Assembly (NCBI RefSeq): GCF_036365525.1
Contig: NC_090386.1
Location: 62,514,956 to 62,578,955, forward strand
From: Heterodontus francisci
Taxonomy: Eukaryota
Direction: 5' to 3'
Length of the DNA stretch: 64,000 bases
Under the pieces are notes generated by a model that did no database searches, was not told the origin of the DNA, and saw nothing but the letters and a program-made list of their open reading frames with translations. The translations under genes and the position numbers were made by a program. Each line of letters begins with the position of its first letter. Position 1 is the stretch's first letter. Positions 9,308 through 62,176 of this stretch are shown here, piece by piece.

Positions 9308-9713
9308 CTTTTTTTTTTTTTAATTCTTTCATGGCATGCGGGCGTCGCTGGCAAGACCAGCATTTGTTGCCCACCCCTAATTGCCCTTGAACTAAGTGGC
9401 TTGCTAGGCCATTTCAGAGGGCAGTTAACAGTCGACCACATTTGCTGTGGGTCTGGAATCACATGTAGGTCAGACCAGGTAAGGATGGCAAATTTCCTTC
9501 CTTAAAAAGGACATTAGTGAACCAGATGGGTTTTTACAACAATTGACAATGGTTTCATGGTCACCATTAGACTAGCTTTTAATTCCAGTTTTATCAATTT
9601 AATTCAAATTTCACCATCTGCTATAGGGGAATTCGAACCCATGTCACCAGAGCGTTAGCCTAGATGTCTGGATTACTCGTCTAATGACATTACCACTATG
9701 CCACCTCCTCCCC
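9308..9713 (-). mobile_element. tRNA-derived SINE made of the 5' end and 3' tail of the single-ORF LINE
   Basis: A box TGGCATAGTGG (9693-9703), B box GGTTCGAATTCC (9628-9639). Body is homologous to 43208-43506 and the tail to the LINE 3' end, followed by polyA. Confidence 0.9.
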
Positions 9714-11674: not shown

Positions 11675-12032
11675 GCACAGTGGCGCAGTGGTTAGCACCA
11701 CAGCCTCACAGCTCCAGCGACCCAGGTTCAATTCTGGGTACTGCCTGTGTGGAGTTTGCAAGTTCTCCCTGTGTCTGCGTGGGTTTTCTCCGGGTGCTCC
11801 GGTTTCCTCCCACAAGCCAAAAGACTTGCAGGTTGGTAGGTAAATTGGCCATTATAAATTGCCCCTAAAATAGGTAGGTGGTAGGGAAATATAGGGACAG
11901 GTGGGGATGTGGTAGGAATATGGAATTAGTGTAGGATTAGTATAAATGGGTGGTTGATGGTCAGCACAGACTCGGTGGGCCGAAGGGCCTGTTTCAGTGC
12001 TGTATCTCTAAACTAATCTAAACTAAACTAAA
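11675..12032 (+). mobile_element. HE1-like V-SINE
   Basis: A box TGGCGCAGTGG, B box GGTTCAATTC, V-domain tgtgtggagtttgca..ttctccctgtgtctgcgtgggttt, CR1-type tail gggccgaagggcctgtttc and (TAAAC)n. Confidence 0.92.
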
Positions 12033-12728: not shown

Positions 12729-15700
12729 CACTAATGTCCTTCAGGGAAGAAAATCTGCTGTCCTTACCTGGTCTGGCCTACACATGACTCCAGACCCACA
12801 GAAATCTGGTTGACTCTTAAATGCCCTCCGAAATGGCCTAGTAAGCCATTCAGTTGTATCTAACTACTACGAAGTCAATAAAGGAATGAATACGGACGGA
12901 CCACTTGGACTTGACCTAGGCACCGGAAAGAAAAACGGCAAATCTAGCCCTGTTGACATTGCAAGGTCCTCCTTACTAACATCTGCAGGCTTGTGTCGAA
13001 GTTGGGAGAGCTGTACCACAGACTAGTCAAGCAATGGCCTGGTATTGTCATACTCACCGAATCATACCTTACAGACAATGGCCCAGACAGAGTCATCATC
13101 ATAGCTGGGTATGTCCTGTCCCACTGGCAGGACAGACCCAGCAGGGGTGGCAGCACTGTGGTATACAGTCGAGAGGGAGTTGCCCTGGGAGTCCTCAACA
13201 TTGACTCCAGACGCTCATGGCATCAGGTCAAACATGGGCAAGGAAATCTCCTGCTGATTACCACCTACCCACCATCCCCCACTCTCCTTCAGCTGCTAAA
13301 TCAGTACTCCATGTTGAACGGCACTTGGAGGAATTACGGAGGGTGGCAAGGGCACAGAATGTACTCTGGGTGGGGGACTTCAATGTCCATCACCAAGAGT
13401 GACTTGGTAGCACCACTACTGACCGAGTCCTAAAGGACATAGCTGCTAGACCGGGTCTGCAGTAGGTGGTGAGGGAACCAACAAGAGGGAAAAATATACT
13501 CGACCTCATCCTCACCAATCTGTCTGCCGCAGGTGCAAATGTCCATGACAGTATTGGTAGGAGTGACCACAGCACAGTTCTGGTGGAGACCAAGTCCCAT
13601 CTTCACACTGAGGATACTCTCCATCGTGTTGTGTGGCATGACCACCGTGTTAAATGGGATAGATTTTAAACAGATCTAGCAATGCAAAACTGGGCATCCA
13701 TGAGGCGCTGTGGGCCATCAGCAGCAGCAGAATTGCACTCAATCACAATCTGCAACCTCATGGCCCGGCATATCCCCCACTCTACCATTACCATCAAGCC
13801 GAGGGACCAACCCGGGTTCAATGAAGAGTGCAGGAGGGCATGCCAGGAGAAGCATCAGGCATACCTAAAAATGAGGTGTCTACCTGGTGAAGCTGCAACC
13901 AGGACTAGTTGCATGCCAAACAGCATAAGCAGCATGCGATAGACAAAGCTAAGAGATCCCATAACCAATGGATCAGATCTAAGCTCTACAGTCCTGCCAC
14001 ATCCAGCTATGAATGGTGGTGGACAATTAAACAACTAACAGGAGGAGGAGACTCCACAAATATCCCCATCCTCAATGGTGGAGGAGCCCAGCATATCAGT
14101 GCGAAAGATAAGGCTGAAGCATTTGCAACAATCTTCAGCCAGAAGTGCCGAGTTGATGATCCATCTTGGCCTCCTCCTGAAATCCCCAGCATCACAGATG
14201 CCAGTCTTCAGCCAATTCCATTCACTCCACGTGATATCAAGAAACGACTGAAGGTACTGGATACAGTGAAGGCTATGGGCCCTGACAATATTCCGGCAAT
14301 AGTCCTGAAGACCTGCGCTCCAGAACTTGCTGCTCTCCTAGCCAAGCTGTGCCAGTACAACACTGGCATGTACCCGGCAATGTGGAAAATTGTCCAGGTA
14401 TGTCCTGTACACAAAAAGCAAGATAAATCTAATCCGGCCAATTACCGCCCCATCAGTCCACTCTCAATCATCAGTAAAGAGATGGAAGGCGTCATCAACA
14501 GTGCCATCAAGCGGCACTTGCTTGGCAATAACATGCTCAGTGACACTCAGTTTGGGTTCCGCTAGGGCCACTCAGCTCCAGACCTCATTACAGCCTTGGT
14601 TCAAACATGGACAAAAAAGAGCTGAACTCCAGAGGTGATGTGAGAGTGACTGCCCTTGATATCAAGGCAGCATTTGACAGAATATGGCATCAAGGAGTCC
14701 TCACAAAACTGGAGTCAATGGGAATCAGGAAGAAAATTCTCCACTGGTTGGAGTCATACCTAGCACAAAGGAAGATTGTTGAGGTTGTTGGAAGTCAATC
14801 ATCTCAGCTCCAGGACATCACTGTAGGTGCTCCTCAGGGTCGTGTCCTAGGCCCAACCATCTTCAGCTGCTTCATCAATGATAAGGTCCGAAGTGGGGAT
14901 GTTCACTGATGATTGCACAATGTTCAGCACCATTCGCGACTCCTCAGATACTGAAACAGACTATGCAGAAATGCAGCAAGGCCTGGACAATATCCAGGCT
15001 TGGGCTGATAAGTGGAGAGTAACATTCGTGCAAACAAGTGCCAGGCAATGACCATCTCCCCTTGACAGTCAATGGCATTACCATCGCTGAATCCCCCACT
15101 ATCAACATCCTGGGGTATCTGTTGACCAGAAACTGAATTGGAGTAGCCATATAAATATATGCAAGAGCACATGAGATGCGAGGAATCCTACGGCGAGTAA
15201 CTCACCTCCTGACTCCCCAAAGCCTGTCCACCAGCTACAAAGCACAAATCAGAAGTGTGATGGAATACTTTCCACTTGCCTGGATGGGTGCAGCTCCAGT
15301 AACACTCAAGAAGCTCGACACCATCCAGAAAAAAGTAGCCCGCTTGATTGGCACTCCATCTACAAATATTCACGCCCGCCACCACCGATGCACAGTGGCA
15401 GCAGTGTGTACCATTTACAAGATGCACCGTGGCAACGCATTCAGGCTCCTTCAACAGCACCTTTCAAACCAGTGACCTCTACCACCTCGAAGGACAAGGG
15501 AAGTAGATGCATGGGAACACCACCATCTGCAAGTTCCCCTCCAAGCCACACACCATCCTGACTTGGAACTACATCGCCGTTCCTTCACTGTCGCTGGGTC
15601 AAAATCCTGGAACTCCCTTCCTAACAGCACTGTAGGTGGACTGCAGCGGTTCAAGAAGGCAGCTCACCACCACCTTCTCAAGGGCAATTAGGAATGGACA

Positions 15701-15738
15701 ATAAATGCTGGCCTAGCCAGAGACGCTCACATCCCAGG
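12729..15738 (+). mobile_element. Near full-length copy of the tRNA-headed single-ORF LINE (APE endonuclease + RT, disrupted)
   Basis: Endonuclease motifs IVILTESYL, LWVGDFNVHH, ILDLILTN and GRSDH. RT motifs YRPISPLS, DIKAAFDRIWH and GAPQG..LGPTIF. Several frameshifts and stops; polyA tail. Confidence 0.93.
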
Positions 15739-16559
15739 AACGAATATAAAAAAAAAATACTCCCTGTGGTGACAGTAGAAATTGTAATTTCCCTGCCATT
15801 AATGCTTCACTTTGAAGTTCCACGGAAACTTCTTAGCTGTTGGCACCCATTTATACAAAATGTCACTGTTGTGAGTTTTTCCTAACATTGGTAATGTGCA
15901 ATCAAATGGCAGTTTATACTGTTTTATAGAAGGATGATTTTTCAACAGTGAACTGCTCAATTCAAGCATCTGTTTTAACATAGAATTTAGATAAAGCGTA
16001 GTTGAAATTTTGTCCGTTAAACAAAAAATTTGGAAATATTGTTGATCAGAGTCAAATAATCAGAATCAAAAGTAGTCTTAACCAGCCTTGCTTAGTGGAA
16101 TGATTCTGTTTAAACAGAAGGACAAAATGGGAAAGTCAGTGGTTTAGTCTCGAACTGACCACTTAAGCTTCCTTTACTTTTCATGATTCTAGAGCAATTA
16201 TTTTATTTCAAACTTTATCAGTTTGTGACTAATTTAATAATTATCGTGCTTGCAGCAAAGTAGTGACTGAGGACGTTAAATCATCAGTAGTTTTGATTCA
16301 TTTTGCAGCTTTACCTCACTTGTGGTCATTTTGACATTATGTTGCCGTCATTGTGACCTACATAGGGTGACCACCAACAACGCATGAAACTGCAAGTTAC
16401 TCAGATAGATATTCATTTCCGAATTGGTTTTCTTCATAGTGTGTTTAAACAAATGGTGATCAAATGTAACATGTCAGATTAAATCCTCAAATTCGAATAT
16501 GATCTCTTCTTGCAGCACCATAGGGGTACTACATGTTTCAGTGGCACTGTTAGAGGAAT

Positions 16560-17212: not shown

Positions 17213-17428
17213 TAGTTTTTTAGTTTTTAGTTTTAGAGATACAGCACTGAAACAGGCCCTTCGGCCCACCGAGTCTGTGCCGACCATCAACCACCCATTT
17301 TATACTAATCCTACACTAATTCCATATTCCTACCACATCCCCACCTGTCCTTATATTTCCCTACCACCTACCTATACTAGGGGCAATTGCTAATGGCCAA
17401 TTTACCTATCAACCTGCAAGTCTTTGGC
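17213..17428 (-). mobile_element. 3' half of an HE1-like V-SINE
   Basis: Reverse complement of 11820-12030 with a (TAAAAAC)n tail. Confidence 0.9.
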
Positions 17429-18199: not shown

Positions 18200-20920
18200 A
18201 ATCTTTCAATCTTTGGCCTCCTTGTCTCGAGAGACAATGGGTAAGCGCCTGGAGGTGGTCAGTGGTTTGTGGAGCAGCGCCTGGAGTGGCTATAAAGGCC
18301 AATTCTAGAGTGACAGGCTCTTCCACAGGTGCTGCAGATAAAATTGGTTGTCAGGGCTGTTACACAGTTGGCTCTCTCCTTACGCTTCTGTCTTTTTTCC
18401 TGCCAACTGCTAAGTCTCTTCGACTCGCCACGCTTTAGCCCCGCCTTTATGGTTGCCCGCCAGCTCTGGCGATTGCTGGCAACTGACTCCCACGACTTGT
18501 GGTCAATGTCACAGGACTTCATGTCGCGTTGGCAGATGTCTTTAAAGCAGAGCCATGGACGGCCGGTGGGTCTGGTACCAGTGACGTGCCCGCTGTACAA
18601 TGTGTCCTTGGGGATCCTGCCATCTTCCATGCGGCTCACATAGCCAAGCCATCTCGGGCGCCGCTGGCTTAGTAGGGTGTATATGCTGGGGATGTTGGCC
18701 TCCTCGAGGACTTCTGTGTTGGAGATACGGTCCTGTCACCTGATGCCAAGGATTCTCCGGAGGCAGCGAAGATGGAATGAATTGAGACGTCGCTCTTGGC
18801 TGACGTACGTTGTCCAGGCCTCGCTGCCATAGAGCAAGGTACTCAGGACACAGGCTTGATACACTTGGACTTTTGTGTTCTGTGTCAGTGCGCCATTTTT
18901 CCACACTCTCTTGGCCAGTCTGGACACAGCAGAGGAAGCCTTTCCCATGCACTTGTTGATTTCTGCATCGAGAGACAGGTTACTGGGTGATAGTTGAGCC
19001 TAGGTTGGTGAACTCTTGAACCACTTCCAGAGTGTGATCGCTGATATTGATAGATGGGGCATTTCTGACGTCCTGTCCCATGATGTTCATTTTCTTGAGG
19101 CTGATGGTTAGGCCAAATTCATTGCAGGCAGCCGCAAACCTGTCGATGAGTCTCTGCAGACACTCTTCAGTGTGAGATGTTAATGCAGCATCGTCAGCAA
19201 AGAGGAGTTCCCTGGTCAGGACTTTTCATACTTTGGTCTTCGCTTTTTGACAGGCAAGGTTGAACAACCTGCCACCTGATCTTACGTGGAGGAAAATTCC
19301 TTCTTCTGAGGACTTGAATGCATGTGAGAGCAGCAGGGAGAAGAAGATCCCAAACAGTGTAGGTGAGAGAACACAGCCCTGTTTCACGCCACTCAGGATT
19401 GGAAAGGGGTCTGATGAGGTGCCGCTATGCTGAATTGTGCCTTTCATATTGTCATGGAATGAGATGATGATACTTAGTAGCTTTGGTGGGCATCCAATCT
19501 TTTCTAGTAGTCTGAAGAGACCACTTCTGCTGACGAGGTCAAAGGCTTTGGTGAGATCAATGAAAGCAACGTAGAGGGGCATCTGTTGTTTACGGCACTT
19601 CTCCTGTAGCTGGCGAAGGGAGAACAGCATGTCAATGGTGGATCTCTCTGCTCGAAAGCCACACTGTGCCTCAGGATAGACACGCTCAGCCAGTTTCTGC
19701 AGCCTGTTTAAAAGCGACACGAGTGAAGACTTTCCCCACTATGCTGAGCAGGGAGATTCCACGGTAGTTGTTGTAGTCACCGCAGTCACCCTTGTTCTTA
19801 TAGAGGGTGATGATATTGGCATCGCGCATGTCCTGTGGTACGGCTCCCTCATTCCAGCACAGGCAAAGCAGTTCGTGCAGAGCTGGAAGTATAGCAGGCT
19901 TGGCACTCTTGATGATTTCAGGGGTAATGCCGTCCTTCCCAGGGGCTTTTCCGCTGGCTAGAGAATCAATGGCATCACTGAGTTCCGATTTTGTTGGCTG
20001 TTCGTCCAGCTCATCCATGACTGGCAGAGACAGGGTTGCATTGAGGGCAGTCTCAGTGACAACATTTTCCCTGGAGTACAGTTCTAGGTAGTGTTCCACC
20101 CAGCGGTCCATTTGTTTGCGTTGGTCAGTGATTGTGTCCCCCGATTTAGATTTGAGGGGGGCAATCTTCTTGACAGTTGGCCCAAAAGCTCTAATGCCAT
20201 CATACATCCCTCTGATATTTCCTATGTCAGAGGCCAGCTGGATATGACTGCATAGGTGTTGCCAGTAGTCATTTGCGCAGCGCCTGGCTGTTCTTTGTGC
20301 AGCTCTTCTGGCAGCTTTAAGTGCTACGGATGTTAACTCGCTGGGGGCTTTCTTGTAGCTCAGCAGTGCAATGTGCTTAGCGGCTATGACAGGTTCCAGC
20401 TCTTCAATGTGAGATTGAAACCAGTCTGCATTCCGCTTCACACAATTGCCATAGGTGGTCATTGCTGAGTCATAGATGGCGTCTCTGATGTGGGCCCACT
20501 TGGTCCCTGCATCCCCTGTGGGAGTGTTTTGGAGGGCTTTTTCAAGTGAATTTAGAAACTTGCTTAACAGCTGTGGATGAGAAATTCTGCTGGTGTTGAT
20601 GCGCGGGCGGCCCTTCTGCTTGGAGTGATGCAGCTTCTTTGGTTTGAGGCTAACCTTGCTGCAGACCAGGGAGTGGTCGGTGTCGCAGTCCGCACTGTGG
20701 AAGCTGCGTGTGATTTGAACACTGTTTAAAGAGGCTCGCCTTGTAACGATGAGGTCCAGCTGGTGCCAACGACGTGATCTTGGGTGCCTCCAAGAAACCT
20801 GGTGACAGGGTTTAGTGTGAAAGAATGAATTGGTGATGCAGAGGTTATGATAGGTACACAACTCAAGCAGTCTCTGTCCATTCTCATTCATCCTTCCAAT
20901 GCCAAAGCGCCCAAGGCAGG
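18200..20920 (-). mobile_element. 5'-truncated RTE-clade LINE (endonuclease C-terminus + RT), frameshifted
   Basis: ORF 19686-20891 (NENGQRLLELC, WHQLDLI, ADCDTDH, YRGISLLS), ORF 19226-19720 (FIDLTKAFD, GVKQGCVLSP) and C-terminal C-x2-C GRACHSRIGLYSH. Confidence 0.93.
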
Positions 20921-21802
20921 AAGGCCTAAAACTACATTAAATCAGAAATGCCTAGAAGAACAGCTTTTGTCAACTTCAGGTCATTTTGAATTTAGTTTGC
21001 TTCAAAAAAGAAACCATACTTGCACCAGATCTTTACAGGGACTAGGTTTCAAGGCTATTGTGTTCAGAGGTCATTTGAAAATTGTCTCAAGCTTTATTCC
21101 CGTGGTTTACTAGATCAGATAAATAGCAATACTGCCAGTTACAACATTCATGAATTTATTACATTATAAATTATAGGGAATTAGAAAGATCATATATATC
21201 TAATCGATTTATTAAGCACCTGCGTTTTAACAGAAGTGCAACTGGCACCAGACGAAAACAAATATCAGAATGGACATTCTTTTTTTGGGGGGGGGGGGGG
21301 GGGGGGGGGGGTAGGGTGGGCGGGGGAAGCAGTTGGGAAAACAAAGAACAATGCTAAAATTGCAGTTTAAATGGAAATGAGCATTTAGATTTCACCATGA
21401 TGAAATCTCACAACCCTCATTGCCACAATGAGTTCAATATTATATAGTGCTGCACAATTTCAGGATGCAGCTTGACCCACAATTCCCAACACAGTCAGTT
21501 CATGATTGTTGTCTGGTCATCACAAGGCAACAACCAGCTGAAGAGACACTTTCCCCACAAAAAGTGAACTAAGGACAATAACACCCTCCCCCCACCCACC
21601 CACAACCCCTTCCTCATTACACTTGCAAATGAACATAATAGTGCGGACAACAAATTGTGCTTTTCATTTGTAGTGGTCTATCTGAAGGCAGACTTCAAAA
21701 CTTGCATTCAAAGAGATAACTCCAGACACAGCAAATAACAAAATAACAAAATAAAACACTTATTGGCACCAGTAACAGAAATACTTCCTTTGTATCATTT
21801 CA

Positions 21803-23175
21803 AGAACAACAAAGAACAAAGATAATTACAGCACAGGAAGAGGCCCTTCGGCCCTCCAAGCCTGCGCCGATCCAGATCCTCTCTCTAAACATGTCGCCTA
21901 TTTTCTAAGCTTCTGTATCTCTTTTCTTCCTGCCCATTCATGTATCTGTCCAGATACATCTTAAAAGACGCCATCGTGCCCGCATCTACCACCTCCGCTG
22001 GCAATGCGTTCCAGGTGCCCACCACCCTCTGCGTAAAGAACTTTCCACGCATATCCCCCCTAAACTTTTCCCCTTTCACTTTGAACTCGTGTCCTCTAGT
22101 AATTGAAACCCCCACTCTGGGAAAAAGCTTCTTGCTATCCACCCTGTCTATACCTCTCATGATTTTGTACACCTCAATCAGGTCCCCCCTCAACCTCCGT
22201 CTTTCTAATGAAAATAATCCTAATCTACTCAACCTCTCTTCATAGCTAGCGCCCTCCATACCAGGCAACATCCTGGTGAACCTCCTCTGCACCCTCTCCA
22301 AAGCATCCACATCCTTTTGATAATGTGGCGACCAGAACTGTACGCAGTATTCCAAATGTGGCCGAACCAAAGTCCTATACAACTGTAACATGACCTGCCA
22401 ACTCTTGTACTCAATGCCCCGTCCGATGAAGGAAAGCATGCCGTATGCCTTCTTGACCACTCTATTTACCTGCGTTGCCACCTTCAGGGAACAGTGGACC
22501 TGAACACCCAAATCTCTCTGGACATCAATTTTCCCCAGGACTTTTCCATTTACTGTATAGTTCACTCTTGAATTGGATCTTCCAAAATGCATCACCTCGC
22601 ATTTGCCCTGATTGAACTCCATCTGCCATTTCTCTGCCCAACTCTCCAATCTATCTATATTCTGCTGTATTCTCTGACAGTCCCCTTCACTATCTGCTAC
22701 TCCACCAATCTTAGTGTCGTCTGCAAATTTGCTAATCAGTCCACCTATACTTTCCTCCAAATCATTAATGTATATCACAAACAACAGTGGTCCCAGCACG
22801 GATCCCTGTGGAACACCACTGGTCACACGTCTCCATTTTGAGAAACTCCCTTCTACTGCTACTCTCTGTCTCCTGTTGCCCAGCCAGTTCTTTATCCATC
22901 TAGCTAGTACACCTTGGACCCCAAGCGCCTTCACTTTCTCCATCAGCCTGCCATGGGGAACCTTATCAAACGCCTTACTGAAGTCCATGTATATGACATC
23001 GACAGCCCTTCCGTCATCAATCAACTTTGTCACTTCCTCAAAGAATTCTATTAAGTTGGTAAGACATGACCTTCCCTGCACAAAACCATGTTGCCTATCA
23101 CTGATGAGCCCATTTTCTTCCAAATGGGAATAGATCCTATCCCTCAGTATCTTCTCCAGCAGCTTCCCTACCACT
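21803..23175 (-). mobile_element. Young 5'-truncated CR1 (HER1-like) LINE with an open RT frame
   Basis: Uninterrupted 429-codon ORF 21885-23174 (YMDFSKAFDKVPH, GVPQGSVLGP, FADDTK). 3'UTR gggccgaagggcctcttcctgtgctgta with a (TTTGTTC)-type tail. Confidence 0.95.
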
Positions 23176-23422
23176 CCCGTTGAGAGTTACAAAGCAATAG
23201 TGAGACATTAGTCTTTTTTTTTTTTAAGTTTTACAGAATCCAATAGGAATGCCTAACAATTCTGCAAAGGTTTCTCCTAAGCATGGCATGCAAAGGAACT
23301 TAAGGCATCTTTGTCTTTAAAATATAAATTTATGGTACAATTTTGCTCAGGTTAGTTTATTCAAAGTTTCTACTGTCATCCTCTCTGTTAAGAGTAGGAT
23401 GGCCTGACCAGCCGACAGCTCT

Positions 23423-23833
23423 TTTTTTTTTATTTCCAAAATATACTTTATTCATAAAAATCTGTAAAAATTACATTGCCAAACAGTTTCCAAACAGCAC
23501 CAAAAAATACAAACATTGCAAGGGAGATCAGTTTCCTTCAATACTGTCATGAGTTTCTTCACAACCCTTCCGTTTCACAATTGTCATGTCAATTACAGTT
23601 TTACATTTACAGCAATTCAGAATATTAACGATACAGTTCGAGGGGTTTCCCATGGATCCAGCCCCTCAGTCCAGCTTGGTGGGGGAACCTTACACTGTGG
23701 TCTTTCCCCATTGAGCCTTTGCTGCGGCTGCCCCAAGCTTTAGTGCGTCCCTCAGCACGTAGTCCTGGACCTTGGAATGTGCCAGTCTGCAACATTCGGC
23801 GGTGGACAACTCTTTGCGCTGGAAGACCAGCAA
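23423..23833 (-). mobile_element. Short 3' fragment of a Tx1/L1-clade LINE with a 17 bp TSD
   Basis: Nearly identical to 59938-60350. TSD gaccagccgacagctct at 23406-23422 and 23834-23850. Confidence 0.95.
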
Positions 23834-23943
23834 GACCAGCCGACAGCTCTGTTGCAGCTATAAATGCCACTGATTGTTTAGACGGAAATGTACTTCTTTC
23901 TGCATACCAACACTGATCTTTGTAGTGCATCATCTTACACTCA

Positions 23944-34373: not shown

Positions 34374-35315
34374 CTTCCTTTCTTTCTTTGGCCTCCTTGT
34401 CTCAAGACACAATGGGTAAGCGCCTGGAGGTGGTCAGTAGTTTGTGAAGCAACGCCTGGAGTGGCTATAAAGGCCAATTCTAGAGTGACAGACTCTTCCA
34501 CAGGTGCTGCAGATAAAATTGGTTGTCGGGGCTGTTACACAGTTGGCTCTCCCCTTGCGCTTCTGTCTTTTCTCTGCCAACTGTTAAGTCTCTTTGACTC
34601 GCCACACTTTAGCCCCGCCTTTATGGTTGCCCGCCAGCTCTGGCAATCACTGGCAACTGACTCCCACGACTTGTGATCAATGTCACAGGACTTCATGTTG
34701 CATTTGCAGATGTCTTTAAAGCGGAGACATGGACGGCTGGCGGGTCTGGTACCAGTGACGTGCTCGCTGTACAATGTGTCCTTGGGGATCCTGCCATCTT
34801 CCATGCGGCTCACATGGCCAAGCCATCTCAGGCGCCGCTGTCTCAGTAGGGTGTATATACTGAGGATGTTGGCCGCCTCAAGGACTACTGTGTTGGAGAT
34901 ACGGTCCTGCCACCTGATGCCAAGTATTCTCCGGAGGCAGAAAAGATGGAATGAATTGAGACGTCGCTCTTGGCTGACATACATTGTCCAAGCCTCGCTG
35001 CCAAAGAGCAAGGTACTGAGGACAAAGGCTTGATACACTCGGACTTTTGTGTTCCGTGTCAGTGCGCCATTTTCCCCACACTCTCTTGGCCAGTCTGGAC
35101 ATAGCAGTGGAAGCCTTTCCCATGCGCTTGTTGATTTCTGCATCGAGAGACAGGTTACTGGTAATAGTTGAGCCTAGGTAGGTGAACTCTCGAACCACTT
35201 CCAGAGCATAGTCGCCGATATTGATGGATGGAGCATTTCTGATGTCCTGTCCCAGGATGTTAGTTTTCTTGAGGCTGGTGGTTAGGCCAAATTCGTTGCA
35301 GGCAGCCGCAATCCT
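34374..35315 (-). mobile_element. 5'-truncated RTE LINE with ~90 bp flanking direct repeats
   Basis: Homologous to 18210-19140; direct repeats at 34286-34373 and 35316-35408. Confidence 0.93.
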
Positions 35316-37880
35316 GCTAAGTGTTGCACCATCAATGACTTCACTTATATAAGTAAAATAAACCATATTTTCCAATTTTAAATTAAATTAAATTCTGGGC
35401 TCCAAATCAGACTCCAAAATACTGGACTAAAAGCAGGGGTTACGGAGGACCGAGTGTCAAATCCAAAGTACCACCCTTGCTTTGCCCCTAACCTGGAATC
35501 AGACCAACACAAAAAGTTGTTGCTACGTTTAAGACTCTCCAAACCAAACTACTGAGAAATTCACACAAGTAAATATCAAACACTCACTTTCTCCTCTTCT
35601 CTCTTTCAGTTCCACTTACCAAGCTCCAGAGAGTTTGGTCAAAGATTGGCAATAGCCAAGGCTTGGGGGTTCCTGAAAGTGTATTATACTGGATTTTAAC
35701 CACCTAAAACCACAAGGCTTACCAGTGCAAAGTTACCTGCCAGATCAGACCACTATCAATTAAAGCATATAGCTTGCAGGGTTATCTGGAGCTGACTGGA
35801 AAGAACTTGAGCTCTCCATGACAAATTTACCCCTCATTGCGTATAAGCAAAGCTAAAAAAAAGTACACAGGACTATGCCAACCTTTCTGGCTCAGATGGC
35901 CAGAGGGTTGGCTCAAATTGCAATTCTTCCATCAGGTGTACTGTATTACAGCCAACATGATAGCCAAGATGTTCCACTTAGCCCTGCTCTCTCTTTGCCT
36001 CCTTCTCCACCATTGACAGCCACACCTGATGATAGTCACTGGTTGGTCATTAGACAACTACAGAGTAGGAGTTTGAGTACTCCACTTGGAAGACAGAAAA
36101 CTTCAAGCATTTCTCAAAACACACATCATCATCCACCCAAACACATCATGAGTAAACACATGGTTCCACCAGTTAAGATGCAGAGCAACAACTGCTTACT
36201 TCTTGCACCCAGTTATGACAGGCATCAAACCTTGGAGATCGAAGCAAATCATTTTATAACCAGCCTTGAAATAACACCTTCTGCCAAGGCTTAGAATTTC
36301 CTCATCAGCTGTGTGACAGATGTGCCTTCAGCGTGGTGCAAAGACTGATACATGGCAGATTATGATATGCAGCCACCTTGATGTTCTAGGCATCAACATG
36401 CAATGCCTGCACGAGGCTACTTGAACACATCTGCTAAATGCATTTTCTTGTAGAAGTAGTTTTGAAAAAGTGATGCATCTGCTGTGAGGTTAACTGTCCC
36501 TCTTGGGTGCTGAGTGACAGTCTCATGTAGGCCAGAGCGCTCTCACTGCAATAACTTCCCTTTTCTAACCAGAAATTCATCTGTCAACTTGGTTTTTGCA
36601 CATATGCCACATGGAACTCTTTGCATGCCATTAACTTATAAAATGTTCAGGACTACTATTTGGATACATCTTATATGCCACAAGTTTAACCAACATGAGG
36701 ACTCGCAGTTACTGAAAAAAAAAGATAGAAAATCCAAAAGCACCTTAGATCACTCAGCGAAGCCATGGCAAACTCTGCAAGCTGACAGACATATATCAGA
36801 ACCTCAGGTACTGACCAAACAATTGGGACAAATGTTCCCGGTGTTTTTCAGTCAATACCTTCAGGATTCCCATTTCAATGGTGAAAAGCCATATACAGCA
36901 TTTAACTGCAGCCAGCACCATATCCCACTGTTAGGTCCACTTTTGGATGGTCAGTAGAGATTACCTGATTCCCAGATGAGTCCAACAAACAAGCAATGCA
37001 GTTCTTTCAGTAATGCCTGGAATGGGCACTTCTATGATGATCCTTGAAGATACCAAAGATATCACTGATGAAACTGGCCAATCTGGCTTCATTCTCAATA
37101 GTTTTAGCAGGCCTCTATCAACACAAGTGTCTCAGAGCTGGAGAAAGCAGCTCATATAAAATCTACAATTTTTTTTTTATATTCATTCATGGGATGTGGG
37201 CGTTGCTGGCTAGGACAACATTTATTACCCATCCCTAATTCCCCTCGAGAAGGTGGCGGTCAGCTGCCTTCTTGAACCGCTGCAGTCCATGTGGTGTAGG
37301 TACAACTACAGTGCCATTGGGAAGAGAGTTCCAGGATTTTGACCCAGCAACAGTGAAGGAACGGCGGCGATACTGTTCCAAGTCAGGATGGTGTATGGCT
37401 TGGAGGGGAACTTGCAGGTGGTGGTGTTCCCATGCATCTGCTGCCCTTGTCCTTCTAGGTGATAGAAAAGTCACAGGTTTGGAAGGTGCTATCTAAGGAG
37501 CTTTGGTGCATTGCATCTTGTAGATGGTACATACTGCTGCCACTGTGTGTCAGTGGTGGAGGGAATGAATGTTTGTGGATGGAGTGTCAATCCAGAGGGC
37601 TGCTTTGTCCTGGATGGTGTCGAGCTTCTTGATTGTTATTGGAGCTGCACTTGTCCAGGCAAGTGGAGAATGTTTCATCACACTCCTGAATTGTGCCTTT
37701 TAGATGGTGGACAGGCTTTGGGGAATTGGGAGGCGAGTTACTCATCACAGGATTCTTAGCCTCTGACCTGCTGTTGTAGCCACGGTATTTATATGGCGAC
37801 TCCAGTTCAGTCTCTGGTCAATGGTAACCCCCAGGATCTTGATAGTGGGGGATTCAGCAATCGCAATGACTCTGAATGTC

Positions 37881-40800
37881 ATAGAATCATATAATCATAG
37901 AAAGTTTAAAGCACAGAGAGAAGCCACTTGGCCCATCATTCCTGTGCCAGCCGAAAAACGATCCACCTTTTCTAATCCCACCTTCCAGCATTTAGTCTGT
38001 AGCTCTGCAGATTACAGCACTTGAGGTGCATATCCGGACTCCTTTTAAATGAGTTGAGAATCTCTGCCTCAGCTACCCTTTCAGGCAGTGAGTTCCAGAC
38101 CCCCACCACCCTCTGGGTGAAAAAGGTTTTTCCTCATCTCCCCTAATTTTTCTACCAATCACTTTAAATCTATGCCCCCTCGTCACTGACCTCTCTGCTA
38201 CAGTAAATAGACCCTTCACCTCCACTCTAACCACGCCCTTCAAAATTTTGTACATTTCAATCAGATCTCCTCTCAGCCTTCTCTGTTCCAAGGAGAACAA
38301 CCCCAGCCTATCCAATCTTTCCTCATAGCTGCATGTTTCCAGTCCTGGCAGCATCCAAATAAATCTCCTCTGTACCCTCTATAGTGGAATTACATCCTTT
38401 CTGTAATGAGGTGACCAAAACTACATACAGTACTCAAGTTGTGGCCTAACCAAAGAGTTATACAGTTCCAGCAAAACCTCCCTGCTCTTATATTCTATAC
38501 CGCAGCTAATAAAAGAAAGGATTCCATATGCTTTCTTAACCATCTTATTGATCTGTCCAGCTACCTTCAGGGAACTGGGGACATTCACTCCAATGTCCCT
38601 CACTTCCTCTACACTTCTCAGTATTTTCCCATTAATCGTGTATTTCTTTGCCTTGTTTGACCTCCCCAAATGCTCAAACTTCTCCAGGTTGAATTCCATT
38701 TGCCACTTTTCTGCCCATCTGACCAGACCATCAATCTTCCTGCAGCCTACAGCTATCCACCTCACTATCTACCACACGGCCAATGTGTCATCTGCAAACT
38801 TCTTGATCATGCCCTCTGCATTTACATCCAAATCGCTTATACCACAAAAAAACAGGGGACCCAGTATTGAGCCCTGCGGAATACCACTAGAAACAGCCCT
38901 CCAGTCGCTAAAACACCCGTCAATTACCCTTTGTTGCCTGCCACTGAGCCAATTTTGTATCCACCTTGCTGCATTTCCCTGGATCCCATGGGATTTTATT
39001 ATTTTTTTTAAACCAGTCTGCCATGTGGGACCTTGTCAAAAGCCTTGCTAAAATCCATGTAGACCACATCAACTACACTACCCTCATCTACCTTCCTTGT
39101 TACTTCTTCAAAAAATTTGATCAAGTTGGTCAAACAATATCTTCCCTTAACAAATCCATGCTGACTATCCTTGTTTAACCTATGCCTTTCTAAATGACAG
39201 TTATCCTACCTCTCAGAATTGATTCCGAAAATTTGCCTACTACGGAGGTTAGACTGACTGGCCTGTAATTATTGGGTCTATCCCTCGCTCCCTTTTTAAA
39301 CAGAGGTACAACCTTAGTAGTCGTCCAATCCTCTGGCACCACACCTGTATCCGGGGAGGACTGGAAAATGATGGTCAGACCTTCTACGAGTTCCTCTCTT
39401 GCTTCTTTTAATAGCCTAGGGTATATTTCATGTGGCCCTTATGATTTATCAACTTTCAAGGATGCAAATCCCTGAATACTTCCTCTCTCCCTTGTTCATC
39501 ACATTCAGTCCTTCACACTCCGCCTCCTTAACTACAATATCTGCATCATCCCCCTCTTTTGTGAAGACAGACGCAAATATTCATTAAGAACCATACCAAC
39601 ATCGCCTGCCCCTACAGGTTACCTTTTTGGTCTTTTATAGGCCTGGCTCTCTCCTTAGTTATCCTTTTGCTCTTAATGTATTGATAAAACATCTTTGGGT
39701 TCACCTTAATTTTGCTCGCCAATATTCTTTCATGCCCTCTCTTTGCTTTACTAATTTCCTTTTTGATTTCACCCCTCCACTTTCTAGAAAGCGGAGAGGA
39801 GTTTTGAGTTCTCGGTGTCATACATAAGCTTTCCTTTTCTGCCTTATCTTACCCTGTAGGCTTCTTGATATCCATGGGGCTCTAGATTTGGCCATTTCAC
39901 CCTTGTTCTTTGTGAGAACATGTTTACTCTGACCCCCTTGAATCTCCCCATTGAATGCCTCCCACTGCTCTGACACTGATTTACCTTCAAGTAGATGTTT
40001 CCAGTCCACTTTCGCGAAATCACTACTCAGCTTAGTAAAATTGGCCTTGCCCCAATTGAGAACTTTAACTCCTGTTCTATCCTTGTCCTTTTCCATAATT
40101 ATGTTAAAATTAACGGAATTATGATCACTACCACCAAAATGCTCTCCAACTGCCACCCCTTCCACCTGCCCATCTTCATTTCCTAAAACCAAGTCTACAA
40201 CTGCATCCTCTCTTGTTGGACTTGCTACATACTGGGCAAAAAGGTTCTCCTGAATGCACCTCAAGAATTCTGCTCCCTCAATTCTTTTCACACTAAAACT
40301 ATCCCAGTTAATATTGGGGTAGTTAAAATACCTTACTATTATTTCCCTATTGTTCTTGCACTTCTCAGAGATTTGCCTACATATCCGCTCTTCTATTTCC
40401 CTCTGTTTGGGGGTAGAGCATGGCTACCCGACCCTAACCCAACAACACGTGTCAGGTTCGGGTCTGGTCACTCTTCCGGGTCCGGCATTCGGGCTCAGGT
40501 CAGGCTGGGTCGGACACAGTGACAGCCAGGACGTCAAGGTGGGAAACACTCTGCACTAGTCTGCAGTGAGCGATTACATCCAAGATAGAGCACAACCTCT
40601 TTAATATAATCAACTTTATTCCGGTGGTCAGGTCGGGCGAAGGAAAAAATGAAAGGACTCGGGTCGGGTGTGGTTCTGTCGGGCTCGGGTCCGGTTTCAT
40701 TTGCAGACCCAAGCAGGGCTTTATTTGGGGGTCTATAGTACACTCCTAGCAGTGTGATTGCCCTTTTTTTGTTCTTTAGCTCAATCCATATGGCCTCATT

Positions 40801-40980
40801 TGATGAACCTTCCAACATACCATCCTTCCTCACAGCTGTAATAGTTTCCTTCACCAAAATTGCCACTTCCCCTCCTTTCTTATCCCCCTCCCTATTGCAT
40901 CAGAAAACCCTGTAACCAGGAACGTTGAGCTGCCATTCCTGTCCCTCCTTAAGCCATGTTTCTGTAATAGCTATAATATC
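37881..40980 (-). mobile_element. CR1 (HER1-like) LINE, ORF2 endonuclease to RT, nested
   Basis: AITETWL, LLGVYYRPPN, DLVLGNE, GGSDHNSV and LEQRRLRGDLIE peptides; (ATTCTATG)-type microsatellite tail at 37881-37900. Confidence 0.9.
40414..40723. mobile_element. hAT-type MITE nested in the CR1 endonuclease region
   Basis: Perfect 8 bp TSD tttggggg (40406-40413, 40724-40731), imperfect TIR TAGAGCATGGCT/AGCAGGGCTTTA, TCGGGTC repeats. Confidence 0.88.
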
Positions 40981-43949
40981 AAGGGCAGATGGTTAGATTC
41001 TGTCTTGTTGGAGATGGTCATTACCTGTCACTTGTGTAGCATGAATGTTACTTGCCACTTATCAGCCCAAACCTGGATATTGTCCAAGTCTTGATGCATT
41101 TCTACATGGACTGCGTCAGTACCTGAGGAGTCGTGAATGGTGCTGAACATTGTGCAATCATCAGCGAAAGCAAACATCCCCACTTCTGACCTTATGATTG
41201 AAGGAAGGTCATTGATGAAGCAGCTATAGATGGTTGGGCCCAGGACACTACTCTGTGGAACTCCTCTAGTGATGTCCTGGAGCTCAGATGATTGACCTCC
41301 AACAACCACAACCATTTTACTTTGCGCTAGGTAAGACTCCAACCAGCGGAGTTTTCCTCCTGATTCCCATTGACTACAGTTTTGCTAGGGCTCCTTGATG
41401 CCATACTCGGTCAAATGCTGCCTTGATGTCAAGGGCAGTCACTCTCACCTCTGGAGTTCAGCTCTTTTGTCCATGTTTGAACCAAGGATGTAATGAGGTC
41501 AGGAGCTGAGTGGCCCTGGCGAAACCCAAACTGAGCATCACTACGCAGGTTATTGCTGAGCAAGTGCCGCTTGACAGCGCTGTTGACGACACCTTCCATC
41601 ACTCTACTAATGGTCGAGAGTGGACTGTAATTGGTCGGGTTGGATTTGTCCTGCTTTTTGTGTACAGGACATACCTGAGCAATTTTCCCATTGCCAGGTT
41701 AACGCCTGTGTTGTAGCTGTGCTGGGACAGCTTAGCTAGGGGCGCGGCAAATTCTGGAGCACAAGTCTTCAGTGCTAGTGCCCGAATGTTGTCACGGCCC
41801 ATAGCCTTTGCAGTATCCAGTGCCTTCAGTTGTTTCCTGACATCACGCGGAGTGAATGGAATTAGCTGAAGACTGGCATCTGTGATGCTGGGGACTTCAG
41901 GAGGAGGCCGAGATGAATCAGTCACTCGGCACTTCTGGCTGAAGATTGTTGCAAATGCTTCTGCCTTATCTTTCGCACTGATGTGCTGGGCTTCCTCCAT
42001 CACTGAGGATGGGGATATTTGTGGAGCCTCCTCCTCCAATTATTTTTGTTTAATTGTTCACCACCATTCACGACTGGATGTGGCAGGACTGCAGAGTTTA
42101 ACTCTGTCTATCACATGCTACGTACACTGTTTGGCATGCAAGCAATCCTGGTTGTAGCTTCACCAGGTTGACATCTCATTTTGAGGTATACCTGGTGCAG
42201 CTCCTGGCATGCCCTCCTGCACTCTTCATTGAACCAGAGTTGGCCCCCCGGCTTGATGGTAATGGTAGAGTGGGGGATATGCCAGGCCATGAAGTTACAG
42301 ATTGTGGTTGAGTACAATTCTGCTGCTGCTGATGGCCCACTGCGCCTCATTGATGCCCAGTTTTGTGTTGCTAGACCTGTTTGAAATCTATCCCATTTAG
42401 CATAGCAGTAGTGCCACACAACACGATGGAGAGTATCCACAATGTGAAGATGGGACTTCGTCTCCACAAGGACTGTGCGTTGGTCACTCCTACCAATACT
42501 GTCAACAACAGATGCTTCTGTGGCAGGTAGATTGGTGAGGACAAGATCAAATATGTTTACCCCTCTTGTTGGTTCCCTCACCACCTGCCACAAACCATGT
42601 CTAGCAGCTCTGTCCTTTAGGACTCGGCCAGGAGACGTGCTACTGAGCCATTCTTGGTGAGAGACATTGAAGTCCCCCACCCAGAGTACATTCTGCACTC
42701 TTGCCACCCTCAGTGCTTTCTCCAAGTGCTGTTCAACATGGAGGAATACTGATTCATCAGCTGGGGGGGGGGGGGGGGGGGGGGGCGGGGATGGGTGGGT
42801 AGGTGGTAATCAGCAGGAGGTTTCCTTGCCCATGTTTGACCTGATACCATGAGACTTCATGGTGTCTGGAGTCGATGTTGAGGACTCCCAGAGCAACTCC
42901 CTCCACTGTGCTGCCACCTCTGGTGGGTCTGTCCTGCTGGTGGTACAGGACATACCTGGGGAATGGTGATGGCGATGTCTGGAACATTGTCTGCAAGGTA
43001 TGATTTGGTGAATATGACTGTCAGGCCATTGCTTGACTCGTCTGTGGGACAGCTCTCCAAACTTTGGCACAAGTCTCCAGATGTTAATAAGGAGGACTTT
43101 GCAGGGGCCAACAGGGCTGGGTTTGCCGTTGTCATTTCCAGTGCCTAGGTGAATGCCAGGTGGTCCGTTCAGTTTCATTCCTTATTGACTTTGTAGCGGT
43201 TTGATACAACGGAGAGGCTTGCTAGGCCATTTCAGAGGGCATGTAAGAGTCAACCACATTGCTGTGGGTCTGGAGTTACATGTAGGCCAGAGAAGGTAAG
43301 GACAGCAGATTTCCTTCCCTAAAGGACATCAGTGAACTAGATGGGTTTTTTCGACAATGGTTTCATGGCCATCATTAATTCCAGATTTATTAATTGAATT
43401 GCAATTCCACCTTCTGCGATAGTGGAATTCGAACCCATGTCTCCAGATCTATACCCTAGGTCTGAGTTACTAGTCCAGTAATAATACCACTATGCCACCG
43501 CTTCCCTGCAATTCAGCTACCTACTCCCACAAATCCCCTACATCAGCCTGTGCATCATGGGCAGCTCTGAAATAAGTCGGCAGTTCACACCACTTATCTC
43601 AAAAGATCACCACCATCCCCCCAAAAAACTCCATTTAGAGCAGACTTCAAGAATCTGGCACAAAATGTCATCCACACTTGACAGCCAACCAATAAGCCAG
43701 ACAATGAAGTATGAAACATATTGCCACTCAGCCAACTGATGGGGACGGGGGGTGGGGGGGGGGGGGTGGAGAAGAAGTGGAGAAATAGGATAGACAAGAG
43801 AGGGAAACTCTCACCACTGTTGCCTCACATCCATTACAAATCAGATTCCAGGTGAAGCCTTAATCTAGCTTTCCCAAAATATACAATCAGGATTGGAGAT
43901 CTGAAATTAGTTGCCCTGTCGGTTTGTTCAAAAGATACTGCAAATTAAG

Positions 43950-52839: not shown

Positions 52840-53195
52840 GGGCGGCACAGTGGCGCAGTGGTTAGCACCGCAGCCTCACAGCTCCAGCGACCCGGGTTCA
52901 ATTCTGGGTACTGCCTGTGTGGAGTTTGCAAGTTCTCCCTGTGTCTGCGTGGGTTTCCTCCGGGTGCTCCGGTTTCCTCCCACAGCCAAAAGACTTGCAG
53001 GTTGATAGGTAAATTGGCCATTATAAATTGCCCCTAGTATAGGTAGGTGGTAGGGGAATATAGGGACAGGTGAGGATGTGGTGGGATTAGTGTAGGATTA
53101 GTATAAATGGGTGGTTAATGGTCGGCACAGACATGGTGGGCCGAAGGGCCTGTTTCAGTGCTGTATCCCTAAATCTAAAAAAAATCTAAATCTAA
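52840..53195 (+). mobile_element. Full-length HE1-like V-SINE
   Basis: Begins GGGCGGCACAGTGGCGCAGTGG, B box GGTTCAATTC, near-identical to 11675-12032, (TAAATC)n tail. Confidence 0.93.
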
Positions 53196-54433: not shown

Positions 54434-54861
54434 TCTTTTTTCTTTTTTCTTTCTCTTTTGGGCCTCCTTATCTCGAGAGACAATGGATACGCGCCTGGAG
54501 GTGGTCAGTGGTTTGTGAAGCAGCGCCTGGAGTGGCTCTAAAGGCCAATTCTGGAGTGACAGGCTCTTCCACAGGTGCTGCAGAGAAATTTGTTTGTTGG
54601 GGCTGTTGCACAGTTGGCTCTCCCCTTGCGCCTCTGTCTTTTTTCCTGCCAACTACTAAGTCTCTTCGACTCGCCACAATTTAGCCCTGTCTTTATGGCT
54701 GCCCGCCAGCTCTGGCGAATGCTGGCAACTGACTCCCACGACTTGTGATCAATGTCACAGGATTTCATGTCGCGTTTGCAGACGTCTTTATAACGGAGAC
54801 ATGGACGGCCGGTGGGTCTGATACCAGTGGCGAGCTCGCTGTACAATGTGTCTTTGGGGAT
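54434..54861 (-). mobile_element. Short 3' RTE LINE fragment with a 7 bp TSD
   Basis: Homologous to 18210-18615; cgctaat at 54427-54433 and 54862-54868. Confidence 0.92.
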
Positions 54862-55791
54862 CGCTAATACTGGCAGAGTATTGGTATAAAGGTCCAATCC
54901 ACACAAATGTATTAGCAACCCCAAAAGAGTACTATTATTTTTACAAAGGTTTCATTTGTCTTTTAATATTAGCATGTTGGTAACAAAAGCAACCAAGCTG
55001 ATTGGTAAATAATTATTCAAATCAGCAACAGGCGAATAGGAATGCTAGGAATATGCATGGTTATTTCTGTAGTGGTTCTTGCTAAAGGTGCCTGCAGTGC
55101 AAATTGAGACAGGTCAGTGAGTCAAAAGGTATCAAATTTCAGTGCTGTGCCCAGATTATGGAGCCTGGGCTCATCTGTAACTTTTAGCAATGAGTTCTAA
55201 ATTATGGACCAAGATAACGGACCAAGACTTTCCATTTCACCTATGATCTTTACTGTGAGCTGAGAAAGTATTTTATTCGATGAATTTCTACTCTACTCAA
55301 CTTTGTTTAGCTAACTTCTCCCCATCACAACTATATATTACTGACGAATTGTACTTTGAAGTGTTTTCTCAACAGTCATGTCTGTTGCTAAATTCTTCAG
55401 CTGTTTCTGAGATAGTGTAGATATTGGAATCAAACCAAAGAGTTAAATTAAAGACAGACTATTAATACACCGATACATCTGCTCACCATAAATTGAAGTG
55501 ATTTTGAGACTGTGCAGGTGTGCAGGACACTAACTATCACAAGTACCAAGAATATTTTTCAGGAGGCTTATTTAAGCCTTCTGGTTCACCTTTTTTGATT
55601 TGCAGTAAAGTGCATCCTCAGTAAAATACTTTCTTGATGATTGGATCCTCGTTGCTATTTTGATCTTCAAACATTCATTGTCTGGGATTCCACGACTGGG
55701 AACATTATAACAATAATGTATCTATTTTCTTTAGTTGCAAAAATCATATTTTAAATCAACATTCTTATCAAAGAGCAGTGATATAGTTGGT

Positions 55792-59937: not shown

Positions 59938-62176
59938 TTTTTTTTTTATTTCCAAAATATACTTTATTCATAAAAATCTGTAAAAATTACATTGCCAAAC
60001 AGTTTCCAAACAGCACCAAAAAATACAAACATTGCAAGGGAGATCAGTTTCCTTCAATACTGTCATGAGTTTCTTCCCAACCCTTCCGTTTCACAATTGT
60101 CATGTCAATTACAGTTTTACATTTACAGCAATTGAGAATATTAACGATACAGTTCGAGGGGTTTCCCATGGATCCAGCCCCTCAGTCCAGCTTGGTGGGG
60201 GAACCTTACACTGTGCTCTTTCCCCATTGAGCCTTTGCTGCGGCTGCCCCAAGCTTTAGTGCGTCCCTCAGCACGTAGTCCTGGACCTTGGAATGTGCCA
60301 GTCTGCAACATTCGGTGGTGGACAACTCTTTGCGCTGGAAGACCAGCAAGTTTCGGGCAGACCAAAGGGCGTCTTTCACCGAATTGATAGTCCTCCAGCA
60401 GCAGTTGATGTTTGTCTCGGTGTGCGTCCCTGGGAACAGCCCGTAGAGCACAGACTCCTGTGTTACAGAGCTGCTTGGGATGAACCTTGACAAAAACCAC
60501 TGCATCTCTTTCCACACCTGCTTTGCAAAGGCACATTCCAGGAGGAGGTGGGCGACCGTCTCTTCCCCACCACAGCCAACGCGGGGGCACTGTGCGGAGG
60601 GGGCGAGACTTCGGGTGTGCATGAAGGATCTGACGGGGAGGGCCCTTCTCACCACCAGCCAAGCTACGTCTTGGTGCTTGTTTGAAAGTTCTGGTGATGA
60701 GGCATTCCGCCAAATGACTTTGACGGTCTGCTCGGGGAATCATCCGACATGATCCACCGTTTCCTTTTCCCGTAGGGCCTTGAGGACATTCCGTGCAGAC
60801 CACTGCCTGATGGACCGGTGGTCAAAAGTGTTTTCCCGCAGAAACTGCTCCACGAAGGATAGGTGGTACGGCACCGCCCAACTGCATGGAGCGTTCCGCG
60901 GCAATGTGACCAGGCCCATCCTTCGCAACACCGGGGACAGATAGAACCTCAGCACGTAGTGACACTTGGAGTTTGCGTACTGGGGATTTACACACAGCTT
61001 GATGCAGCCGCACACGAAGGTGGTCATCAGGATGAGGGCCACGTTGGGTACATTTTTCCCGCCCTTGTCCAGAGATTTGAACATCGTGTCCCTCCGGACC
61101 CGTTCCATTTTAGATCCCCAGGCGAAGCGGAAAATGGCTCGGGTGACTGCCACGGCGCAGGAGTGGGGTATGGGCCAGACCTGCGCCACGTAGAGCAACA
61201 ACGTGAGCGCCTCGCACCTGATGACCAGGTTCTTACCCACAATGGAGAGAGATCGCTGCCCCCACATGCCCAACTTTTGTCGTACCTTGGCTACTCGCTC
61301 CTCCCATGTTTTGGTGCACGCCCCGGCCCTTCCGAATCATATCCCCAGCACCTTCAGGTAATCTGACCTGACGGTGAAGGGGACACGGGATCGGTCAGCC
61401 CAGTTCCCAAAGAACATGGCCTCGCTCTTGCCGTGGTTAACTTTGGCTCCCGAGGCCAGTTCGAACTGGTCGCAGATGCTCATCAGTCTGCGCACGGACA
61501 GCGGATCCGCGCAGAAGACGGCGACGTCTTCCATGTACAGGGAGGTTTTGACCTGAGTGCCTCCGCTGCCTGGGATTGTCACCCCTCTTATGCTCGCATC
61601 CTTCCTAATAGACTCAGCAAAGGGTTCAATACAGCAAACAAACAAGACAGGGGAGAGAGGACAGCCCTGTCTGACTCCAGATTGGATCGGGAAACTTTCC
61701 GATTCCCACCCGTTGATTGAGACTGCGCTACTGATGTTTGTGTAGAGCAGTTGGATCCAATTGCAGATTCCCTCCCCAAACCCCATTTTGGAAAGCACGT
61801 CCATCATGTAGGTGTGCGATATCCTGTCAAAAGCCTTCTCCTGGTCCAGGCTGATGAGGCAGGTGTCCACCCTCCTGTCCCGTACGTAGGCGATCGTATC
61901 CCTGAGTAGCGCGAGACTATCAGAGATCTTCCTGCCGGGTACAGTACAGGTCTGATCGGGGTGAATCACCAGCTCCAGAGCAGACTTGACTCGACTGGCT
62001 ATGACTTTGGACAGAATCTTGTAATCAACATTAAGCAGTGAGATGGGCCCCCAATTTCTGATTTCTGCCCTCTCCCCCTTCTGCTTGTAAATGAGGGTGA
62101 TGATGCCTTTTCTCATGGATTCTGACATGCTGCCGGCCAGGAGCATACTCTCGTATACTTCCAGCAGGTCCGGGCC
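59938..62176 (-). mobile_element. 5'-truncated Tx1/L1-clade LINE ORF2 (RT + C-terminal zinc knuckle)
   Basis: ISLLNVDYKILSK, LDQEKAFDRI, GVRQGCPLSP, LYMEDV and C-terminal CPRVGCGGEETVAHLLLEC. Three collinear ORFs in one frame; AATAAA and polyA. Confidence 0.93.

Follow-up and report, generated by a model that had tools for sequence, protein, structure and literature searches.

A shark Zenon-type LINE whose head derives from a tRNA and whose coding strand is purged of Pol III stop signals, probably transcribed by Pol III

LINEs count as Pol II units, and in the relevant passages of PMC10886601 Pol III RNAs are described as uncapped and Pol III elements as short. Retroelements running on a captured Pol III promoter are nonetheless known: Cassandra, Helenus and Ajax (TRIMp3) share this trait with the element described here but, according to the same passages, are of LTR type, non-coding and at most ~1.3 kb long (PMC10886601). 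RTE-1_DAn and related elements are LINEs said to contain tRNA-like sequence, as Zenon does here; they belong, however, to the RTE clade and to insects, and the passage concerned gives no position of that sequence, no promoter role and no terminator analysis (PMC5786205). In sharks, a tRNA head, a body and a LINE-type tail are combined in the Deu-SINEs SacSINE1 and LmeSINE1, as excerpts from PMC5499810 and PMC3747384 describe them, and likewise in a 400-base form in the DNA studied here; these SINEs are short and non-coding, whereas the Zenon head and body front a selected frame of 975 codons.

The Zenon family itself is defined in PMC13343379, as far as its main text and supplement were available, by the lack of ORF1 and by a poly-A tail, and the supplement provides seven elasmobranch consensus sequences from four shark species and one ray. 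These Zenons (CarCar, HypSab, RhiTyp, ScyCan and SquAca) have the same 5' sequence as the present element, a length of 3.2-3.3 kb, no ORF1, an A-tail and an APE endonuclease joined to a reverse transcriptase (RT). Zenons of Lepidoptera, hagfish, coelacanth and bivalves also consist of a single frame and an A-tail, but differ at the 5' end: for the lepidopteran one, an excerpt of PMC6740152 reports neither tRNA similarity nor a Pol III promoter (in a statement about the deletion derivative Persaeus), and the first 400 bases of two hagfish and one coelacanth consensus, read by eye, show no head and contain T4+ runs. In the main text of PMC13343379 the terms ‘tRNA’, ‘Deu’ and ‘polymerase III’ do not occur, and the head and the purge go unremarked there. 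The literature consulted, outside of which most subscription papers and the Repbase notes lay, held no paper on a tRNA-headed Zenon or on a Pol III-transcribed autonomous LINE. The family is known; its Pol III head and its strand-specific and motif-specific purge of terminators had gone unremarked in that literature.

The window, the whole stretch of 64,000 nucleotides analysed here, comes from a LINE-rich genome of 6.0 Gb and holds three long copies of the Zenon LINE and several fragments. The features are as follows.

9310 to 9713, minus strand: short SINE form, in which head and body (element positions 2-322) are fused directly to the last ~76 bases and the A-tail
12729 to 15757, plus strand: Zenon copy 1, 5'-truncated, starting at element position 196 without tRNA head; 88% identical to the majority sequence
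12729 to 12860, plus strand: remaining 5' untranslated region of copy 1, common to the short SINE form
12886 to 12888, plus strand: conserved AUG in frame +1 relative to the long frame, 74 bases upstream of the endonuclease domain
12960 to 15691, plus strand: decayed APE-endonuclease and reverse-transcriptase frame of copy 1
13664 to 13667, plus strand: sole sense T4 of copy 1, at a TTT of the majority sequence that is followed by CG
15700 to 15757, plus strand: 3' end of copy 1 with AATAAA (15700-15705) and a short A-tail
37173 to 37881, minus strand: 3' part of Zenon copy 2; a CR1 insertion lies between it and the 5' part
37469 to 37466, minus strand: sole sense T4 of copy 2
40975 to 43501, minus strand: 5' part of Zenon copy 2 with tRNA-like head (A box 43497-43487, B box 43435-43425)
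55792 to 58775, plus strand: Zenon copy 3, 5'-truncated at element position 265
56590 to 56593, plus strand: sole sense T4 of copy 3

A search with the first 672 bases of copy 1 returned 11,048 candidates, of which 40 were scored and 39 fetched at full length; 29 near-full-length copies gave a majority sequence, the 10 broken ones being excluded. It comprises 3290 bases and an A-tail and consists of a tRNA-like head, a body of ~330 bases, which we take to be of Deu type in LINE and short SINE form alike, and a single frame. The frame spans 975 codons from stop to stop and matches Pfam RVT_1 and Exo_endo_phos_2; the majority sequence contains no ORF1 and nothing coding upstream of the frame. 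At the 3' end, A-runs of 5-10 were present in 18/19 copies in which the anchor motif was found. The copy at 12729 and its relatives are the 3.3-kb elasmobranch Zenon family: a 12-base motif of the element recurs in 6/7 of the published elasmobranch sequences supplementing PMC13343379, and the first 400 bases agree by eye. A quick RT tree of 65 rows, none of them a labelled Zenon reference, places the protein beside lepidopteran proteins and apart from the genome's CR1 (support 87). A public shark gene model, P0027 (aldo-keto reductase 1B1-like), contains ~210 residues that are 85% identical to the Zenon LINE protein; it is either a mis-annotation or an exonised LINE copy. The window also contains another short repeat family, probably a SINE, at 11675-12031, 17219-17425 and 52845-53195 (90-94% alike).

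Full-length Zenon copies start with a tRNA-like head that bears A and B boxes, as in tRNA-derived SINEs. Their 5' ends cluster at element positions 1-3, the A box lies at 12, the B box at 76, and a G-run lies ~11 bases before the A box. When 30 copies were chosen by coding sequence alone, 17 extended to positions 1-10 and 13 were cut at scattered places, and their flanks look unrelated. A search with a distant protein, run under a stricter filter, gave 49 matches, from which 20 loci were fetched; 20/20 were of the Zenon family, 12 extended to positions 2-9, and no head-less Zenon family was found among these 20 loci. In 9/22 full copies another repeat flanks the element on either side, with parts that adjoin each other within that repeat (with an overlap of 3-6 bases in six and a gap of 4-21 in three), so that these copies were inserted from head to tail as one unit. 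The tRNA-derived head hence belongs to the inserted Zenon unit. Several further copies (L258, L277, L315, L290 and L292) carry an inverted or displaced head piece, or are SINE forms adjoining LINE pieces.

ARAGORN reported a tRNA-like fold in 9/12 loci, one of the three misses being 5'-truncated, and Rfam a weak tRNA-clan match in one copy (L041, E 0.17); a copy without head gave chance matches only, and ARAGORN found no tRNA in the 64-kb window, where the heads are too decayed. An older subfamily, whose copies are 70-85% identical to the young majority sequence and which as a subfamily is 93% identical to the young one, also bears the head; between the two, the A and B boxes, read against the general consensus of these boxes, differ at degenerate positions only, and the arm between them differs more. 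The published consensus sequences, compared by eye over the first 400 bases, have the head at their start in 7/7 elasmobranch and 0/3 hagfish or coelacanth Zenons (supplement of PMC13343379). The initial annotation had called the element a tRNA-headed LINE. This is right for the full-length copies of the family, but not for the copy at 12729, which begins at element position 196 and so is without the head; the window shows a head in copy 2, on the minus strand, and in the short SINE form. A fixed start immediately ahead of internal A and B boxes suggests a type-2 Pol III unit, in which transcription starts ~11 bases upstream of the A box.

Three of the counts by eye in that annotation were borne out. 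Each of the three long copies has one sense T4, at non-homologous places (13664, 56590 and 37469-37466), and twelve A4+ runs, which are thus frequent, and the CR1 at 21803-23175 has five sense T4+ runs, on the minus strand. The CR1 LINE at 37882-40974 (minus strand), which splits copy 2, belongs to a family rich in sense T4 runs. The T4 of copy 1 likely arose by CpG decay after insertion, to judge from the majority state; the same site also gives T4 in copies L032, L381 and L384. The expectation that the consensus lacks T4 was confirmed as well: the majority sequence contains 0 T4 and 8 T3 in 3290 bases, the older subfamily contains neither T4 nor any active terminator motif, and among full copies 16/22 have no T4, three have one and three have two. 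Whether this absence exceeds chance had been left to null models, and T4 alone answers only in part, since base shuffles expect 4.5 (P 0.011), but synonymous-codon shuffles only 2.1 (P 0.09) and dinucleotide shuffles 1.7 (P 0.16).

According to the part of PMC3141230 that was available, T3VT, TVT3, T2AT2 and T2CT2 likewise terminate human Pol III, but T2GT2 or a lone T3 hardly does so. These motifs were pooled with T4 into one set, which derives from a human in-vitro study and was assembled after a deficit of T3 had been seen: the frame holds 4 T3+ runs versus 12.6 expected, and 0/1000 codon shuffles were as low, while under the same null runs of A, C and G are not depleted. The pooled set is missing altogether. 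On the sense strand of the frame there are 0 active motifs versus 5.9 expected, a count reached in 1/1500 codon shuffles (P ~0.001), on its antisense strand 25 versus 26.2; the older subfamily has 0 versus 5.6, and in dinucleotide shuffles the deficit persists (0 versus 5.0, P 0.004, the range across tests being 0.001-0.004). Both T2VT2 motifs left in the element are T2GT2, the form described as inactive in PMC3141230. The frame, with neither T4 nor active motifs, thus lacks internal terminators, as a Pol III unit would. About half of the young copies have one TVT3 motif in the head, and the T-rich stretch at element positions 107-119 may act as a weak terminator.

Other LINEs of the same genome, with which a comparison had been proposed, show no such loss. 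In majority sequences built in the same way from 25 RTE, 25 CR1 and 14 Tx1-like loci, active motifs occur at 12 versus 14.4, 16 versus 15.1 and 15 versus 15.8 expected, and T3+ runs at 24 versus 24.5, 21 versus 22.6 and 23 versus 20.9, respectively. At synonymous sites flanked by at least two T, Zenon has T in 4/56 cases and the controls in 25/80, 26/58 and 24/105. Beyond this genome, 80 loci yielded 54 LINE frames of at least 500 codons (26 were dropped as short, ambiguous or off target); their ratio of observed to expected motifs ranges from 0.64 to 1.24 with a median of 0.98, and 0/54 have zero T4. L175, the closest outside relative of full length (38% protein identity), has 20 T4 and 46 motifs versus 49.8 expected, and no tRNA head. 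Its long 5' region (positions 1-950) contains a short duplicated motif and a structured-looking start, possibly a ribozyme or promoter. ARAGORN, run on 52 of the 80 outside loci, many of whose contigs may lack the 5' end, made one call, antisense within a frame.

RTE-clade copies, 91-96% identical to other genomic copies and used as control, lie in the window at 18203-20936, 34378-35408 and 54446-54951 (minus strand). A very young Tx1/L1-like LINE at 59938-62200 (minus strand), for which 39 other copies are listed at 98-99% identity, many on contig C41, is possibly still active; a 413-base stretch at 23422-23834 and 59938-60350 (99% identical) is the 3' end of this family.

Among the findings that the initial annotation had named as speaking against its reading, two are computational: conserved T4+ runs in the consensus, of which there are none, and a depletion explained by low T content or codon usage, which for T4 alone is not far from the data (P 0.09) but does not account for the pooled motifs. 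A T-poor and Phe-poor frame (T share 0.20, Phe 1.9%) would by chance contain few T-runs, as the values for T4 under the stricter nulls (P 0.09-0.16) allow; yet nulls that preserve codons or dinucleotides still expect five to six motifs where there are none, controls of equal T share (0.21 in RTE and Tx1-like) lie at expectation, and no outside frame is free of T4, which makes composition a highly improbable explanation. A mutational origin finds equally little in the data. Private C>T changes hit terminator-creating sites (40/1936) as they hit other sites (777/35690), changes to T at T-flanked sites after insertion occur at an ordinary rate, and T4 per kb climbs from 0.16 to 0.99 with copy decay; since terminators arise at the normal rate after insertion, the clean strand is maintained only in the replicating lineage. 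Comparisons between subfamilies have little power here: at terminator-creating sites, 0 substitutions versus ~2.8 expected separate the old subfamily from subfamily 1, and subfamilies 1 and 3 differ by one in each.

Purifying selection acts on the frame itself in the lineage that bears the head, with a dN/dS of 0.11 between the old and the young subfamily, 0.19-0.38 among three young subfamilies and 0.57 for copies against their own subfamily; 4/49 distant-protein matches have a frame without internal stop. Selection that removes Pol III stop signals from the sense strand would account for the purge and is well supported by the sequence, because the head is intrinsic, the depletion is specific for strand, for T and for the family, and neither base or codon make-up nor mutation bias explains it. 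Selection for Pol III read-through, as originally proposed, is upheld to this extent, but not by T4 on its own when set against the codon null. The single gain of the head is one evolutionary replicate.

Alternatively, an internal promoter in the head or body might drive transcription by Pol II. The tRNA head would then be a captured passenger or have a role in folding or translation, and the avoidance of U-clusters would have another cause, such as the stability of the RNA, pausing of the RT, pairing to the A-tail or immune sensing. This would agree with the view of LINEs as Pol II units (passages of PMC10886601) and with the AATAAA ahead of the A-tail, which is found in Pol II LINEs and counts against Pol III. 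A general cost of U-clusters may exist, since TT and isolated T3 are low too: TT has an O/E of 0.67 in the Zenon frame, the lowest outside frame having 0.74, and lone T3 stands at 4 versus 7.7 in the young (P 0.08) and 3 versus 7.3 in the old subfamily (P 0.04). Against this reading, there is no avoidance in other LINEs of the same genome, including the A-tailed Tx1-like family, nor in the head-less relative L175; moreover, the 5' end is sharp and lies ~11 bases before the A box, as expected of a type-2 Pol III start. Pol II transcription combined with U-cluster avoidance is thus improbable. Other marks do not discriminate: splice donors are depleted neither in the Zenon frame nor in controls or outside frames (225 versus 221), and AATAAA/ATTAAA and ATTTA are too few in the frame to separate Pol II from Pol III.

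How the frame is translated is less clear. The majority sequence contains no in-frame AUG ahead of the endonuclease domain. The out-of-frame AUG at 12886-12888 is kept in 61/63 young copies, in fewer old ones, and by eye in 6/7 published elasmobranch consensus heads (supplement of PMC13343379); no slippery site is conserved after it, as judged by eye. The start might be a non-AUG codon, or a frameshift or restart from this AUG. An in-frame AUG-GCC-UAG before the long frame was considered as a read-through start and rejected, because UAG prevails among young as well as old copies and the heads published for whale shark and dogfish, by eye, shift frame or stop after it. No ribozyme family was matched by Rfam in 650 bases of head and body, and folding of one 456-base 5' region gave a z of -2.2 and no firm structure. 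Pol III RNAs lack a cap and can be translated, though weakly; R2 RNA, too, is uncapped, being co-transcribed by Pol I and released by a ribozyme. Frames made without a cap-and-scan start have their precedent in R2 and other LINEs with non-standard translation. The excerpt of PMC3894237 discusses non-standard starts for LINE frames and, for the promoters of LINEs, speaks of ‘Pol II (or pol III)’.

Labour might also be split, the Pol III RNA being reverse-transcribed and the protein made from capped Pol II RNAs that originate from host promoters or introns. The lack of a cap and of an in-frame AUG would then pose no difficulty, and, as the SINE form shows, the machinery would act in trans. A dN/dS of 0.11, on the other hand, requires that source copies depend on their own frame, whereas supply in trans would relax selection, and even this unlikely arrangement implies that Pol III transcribes a 3.3-kb element.

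The 400-base form at 9310-9713 looks, from its joint, like an internal-deletion product of the LINE, or like the donor of its head. Being short and non-coding it would pass as a SINE, which the 3.3-kb element with its selected frame would not, and presumably both match the Deu-type SINE SacSINE1. Sharing the head and tail of the LINE, it would be mobilised in trans. Of 24 public runs considered, all of them assembled contigs, one is recorded as RNA. The joint is present in 4/4 public runs compared with the element, which also cover the whole of it, in assembled contigs whose RNA status is guessed and which carry no information on start, strand or polymerase.

Taken together, the sequence points to a Zenon-type LINE that has a tRNA-derived head as its own 5' end, a purged coding strand and a cis-coding RNA of 3.3 kb that is probably made by Pol III. 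Such an element could operate in the following manner: TFIIIC and Pol III would start at the G-run ~11 bases before the A box; Pol III would continue across head, body, frame and A-tail until the first T-run of the flanking DNA ended transcription, as is the case for Alu-type SINEs. In 21/22 full copies the first T4 downstream of the element lies 4-422 bases away. A source copy that gained a terminator would yield a short RNA lacking the 3' tail required by the RT; such a copy would leave no offspring, which would keep the strand clean. With less weight, we infer that the uncapped RNA may be translated in cis by a non-standard start. In the full scenario, an autonomous coding retrotransposon has been run by Pol III since before the split of sharks and rays, has an uncapped RNA of 3.3 kb and an enzyme gene recoded so as to contain no Pol III stop signals, uses a cap-independent, non-standard start, and gave rise by internal deletion to the shark Deu-type SINE; this is more tentative, and we would give it somewhat less than an even chance.

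If Pol III transcription of Zenon is true, an abundant LINE would break the printed rule that assigns LINEs to Pol II and short, non-coding SINEs to Pol III (as stated in passages of PMC10886601), and it would provide a natural long Pol III mRNA together with its translation. It would also offer a concrete route between LINE and SINE via a common head, body and tail, which bears on the origin of conserved SINE bodies (discussed in the passage of PMC5786205), and the strand-specific purge of terminators would serve as a cheap sequence test for further elements of this kind.
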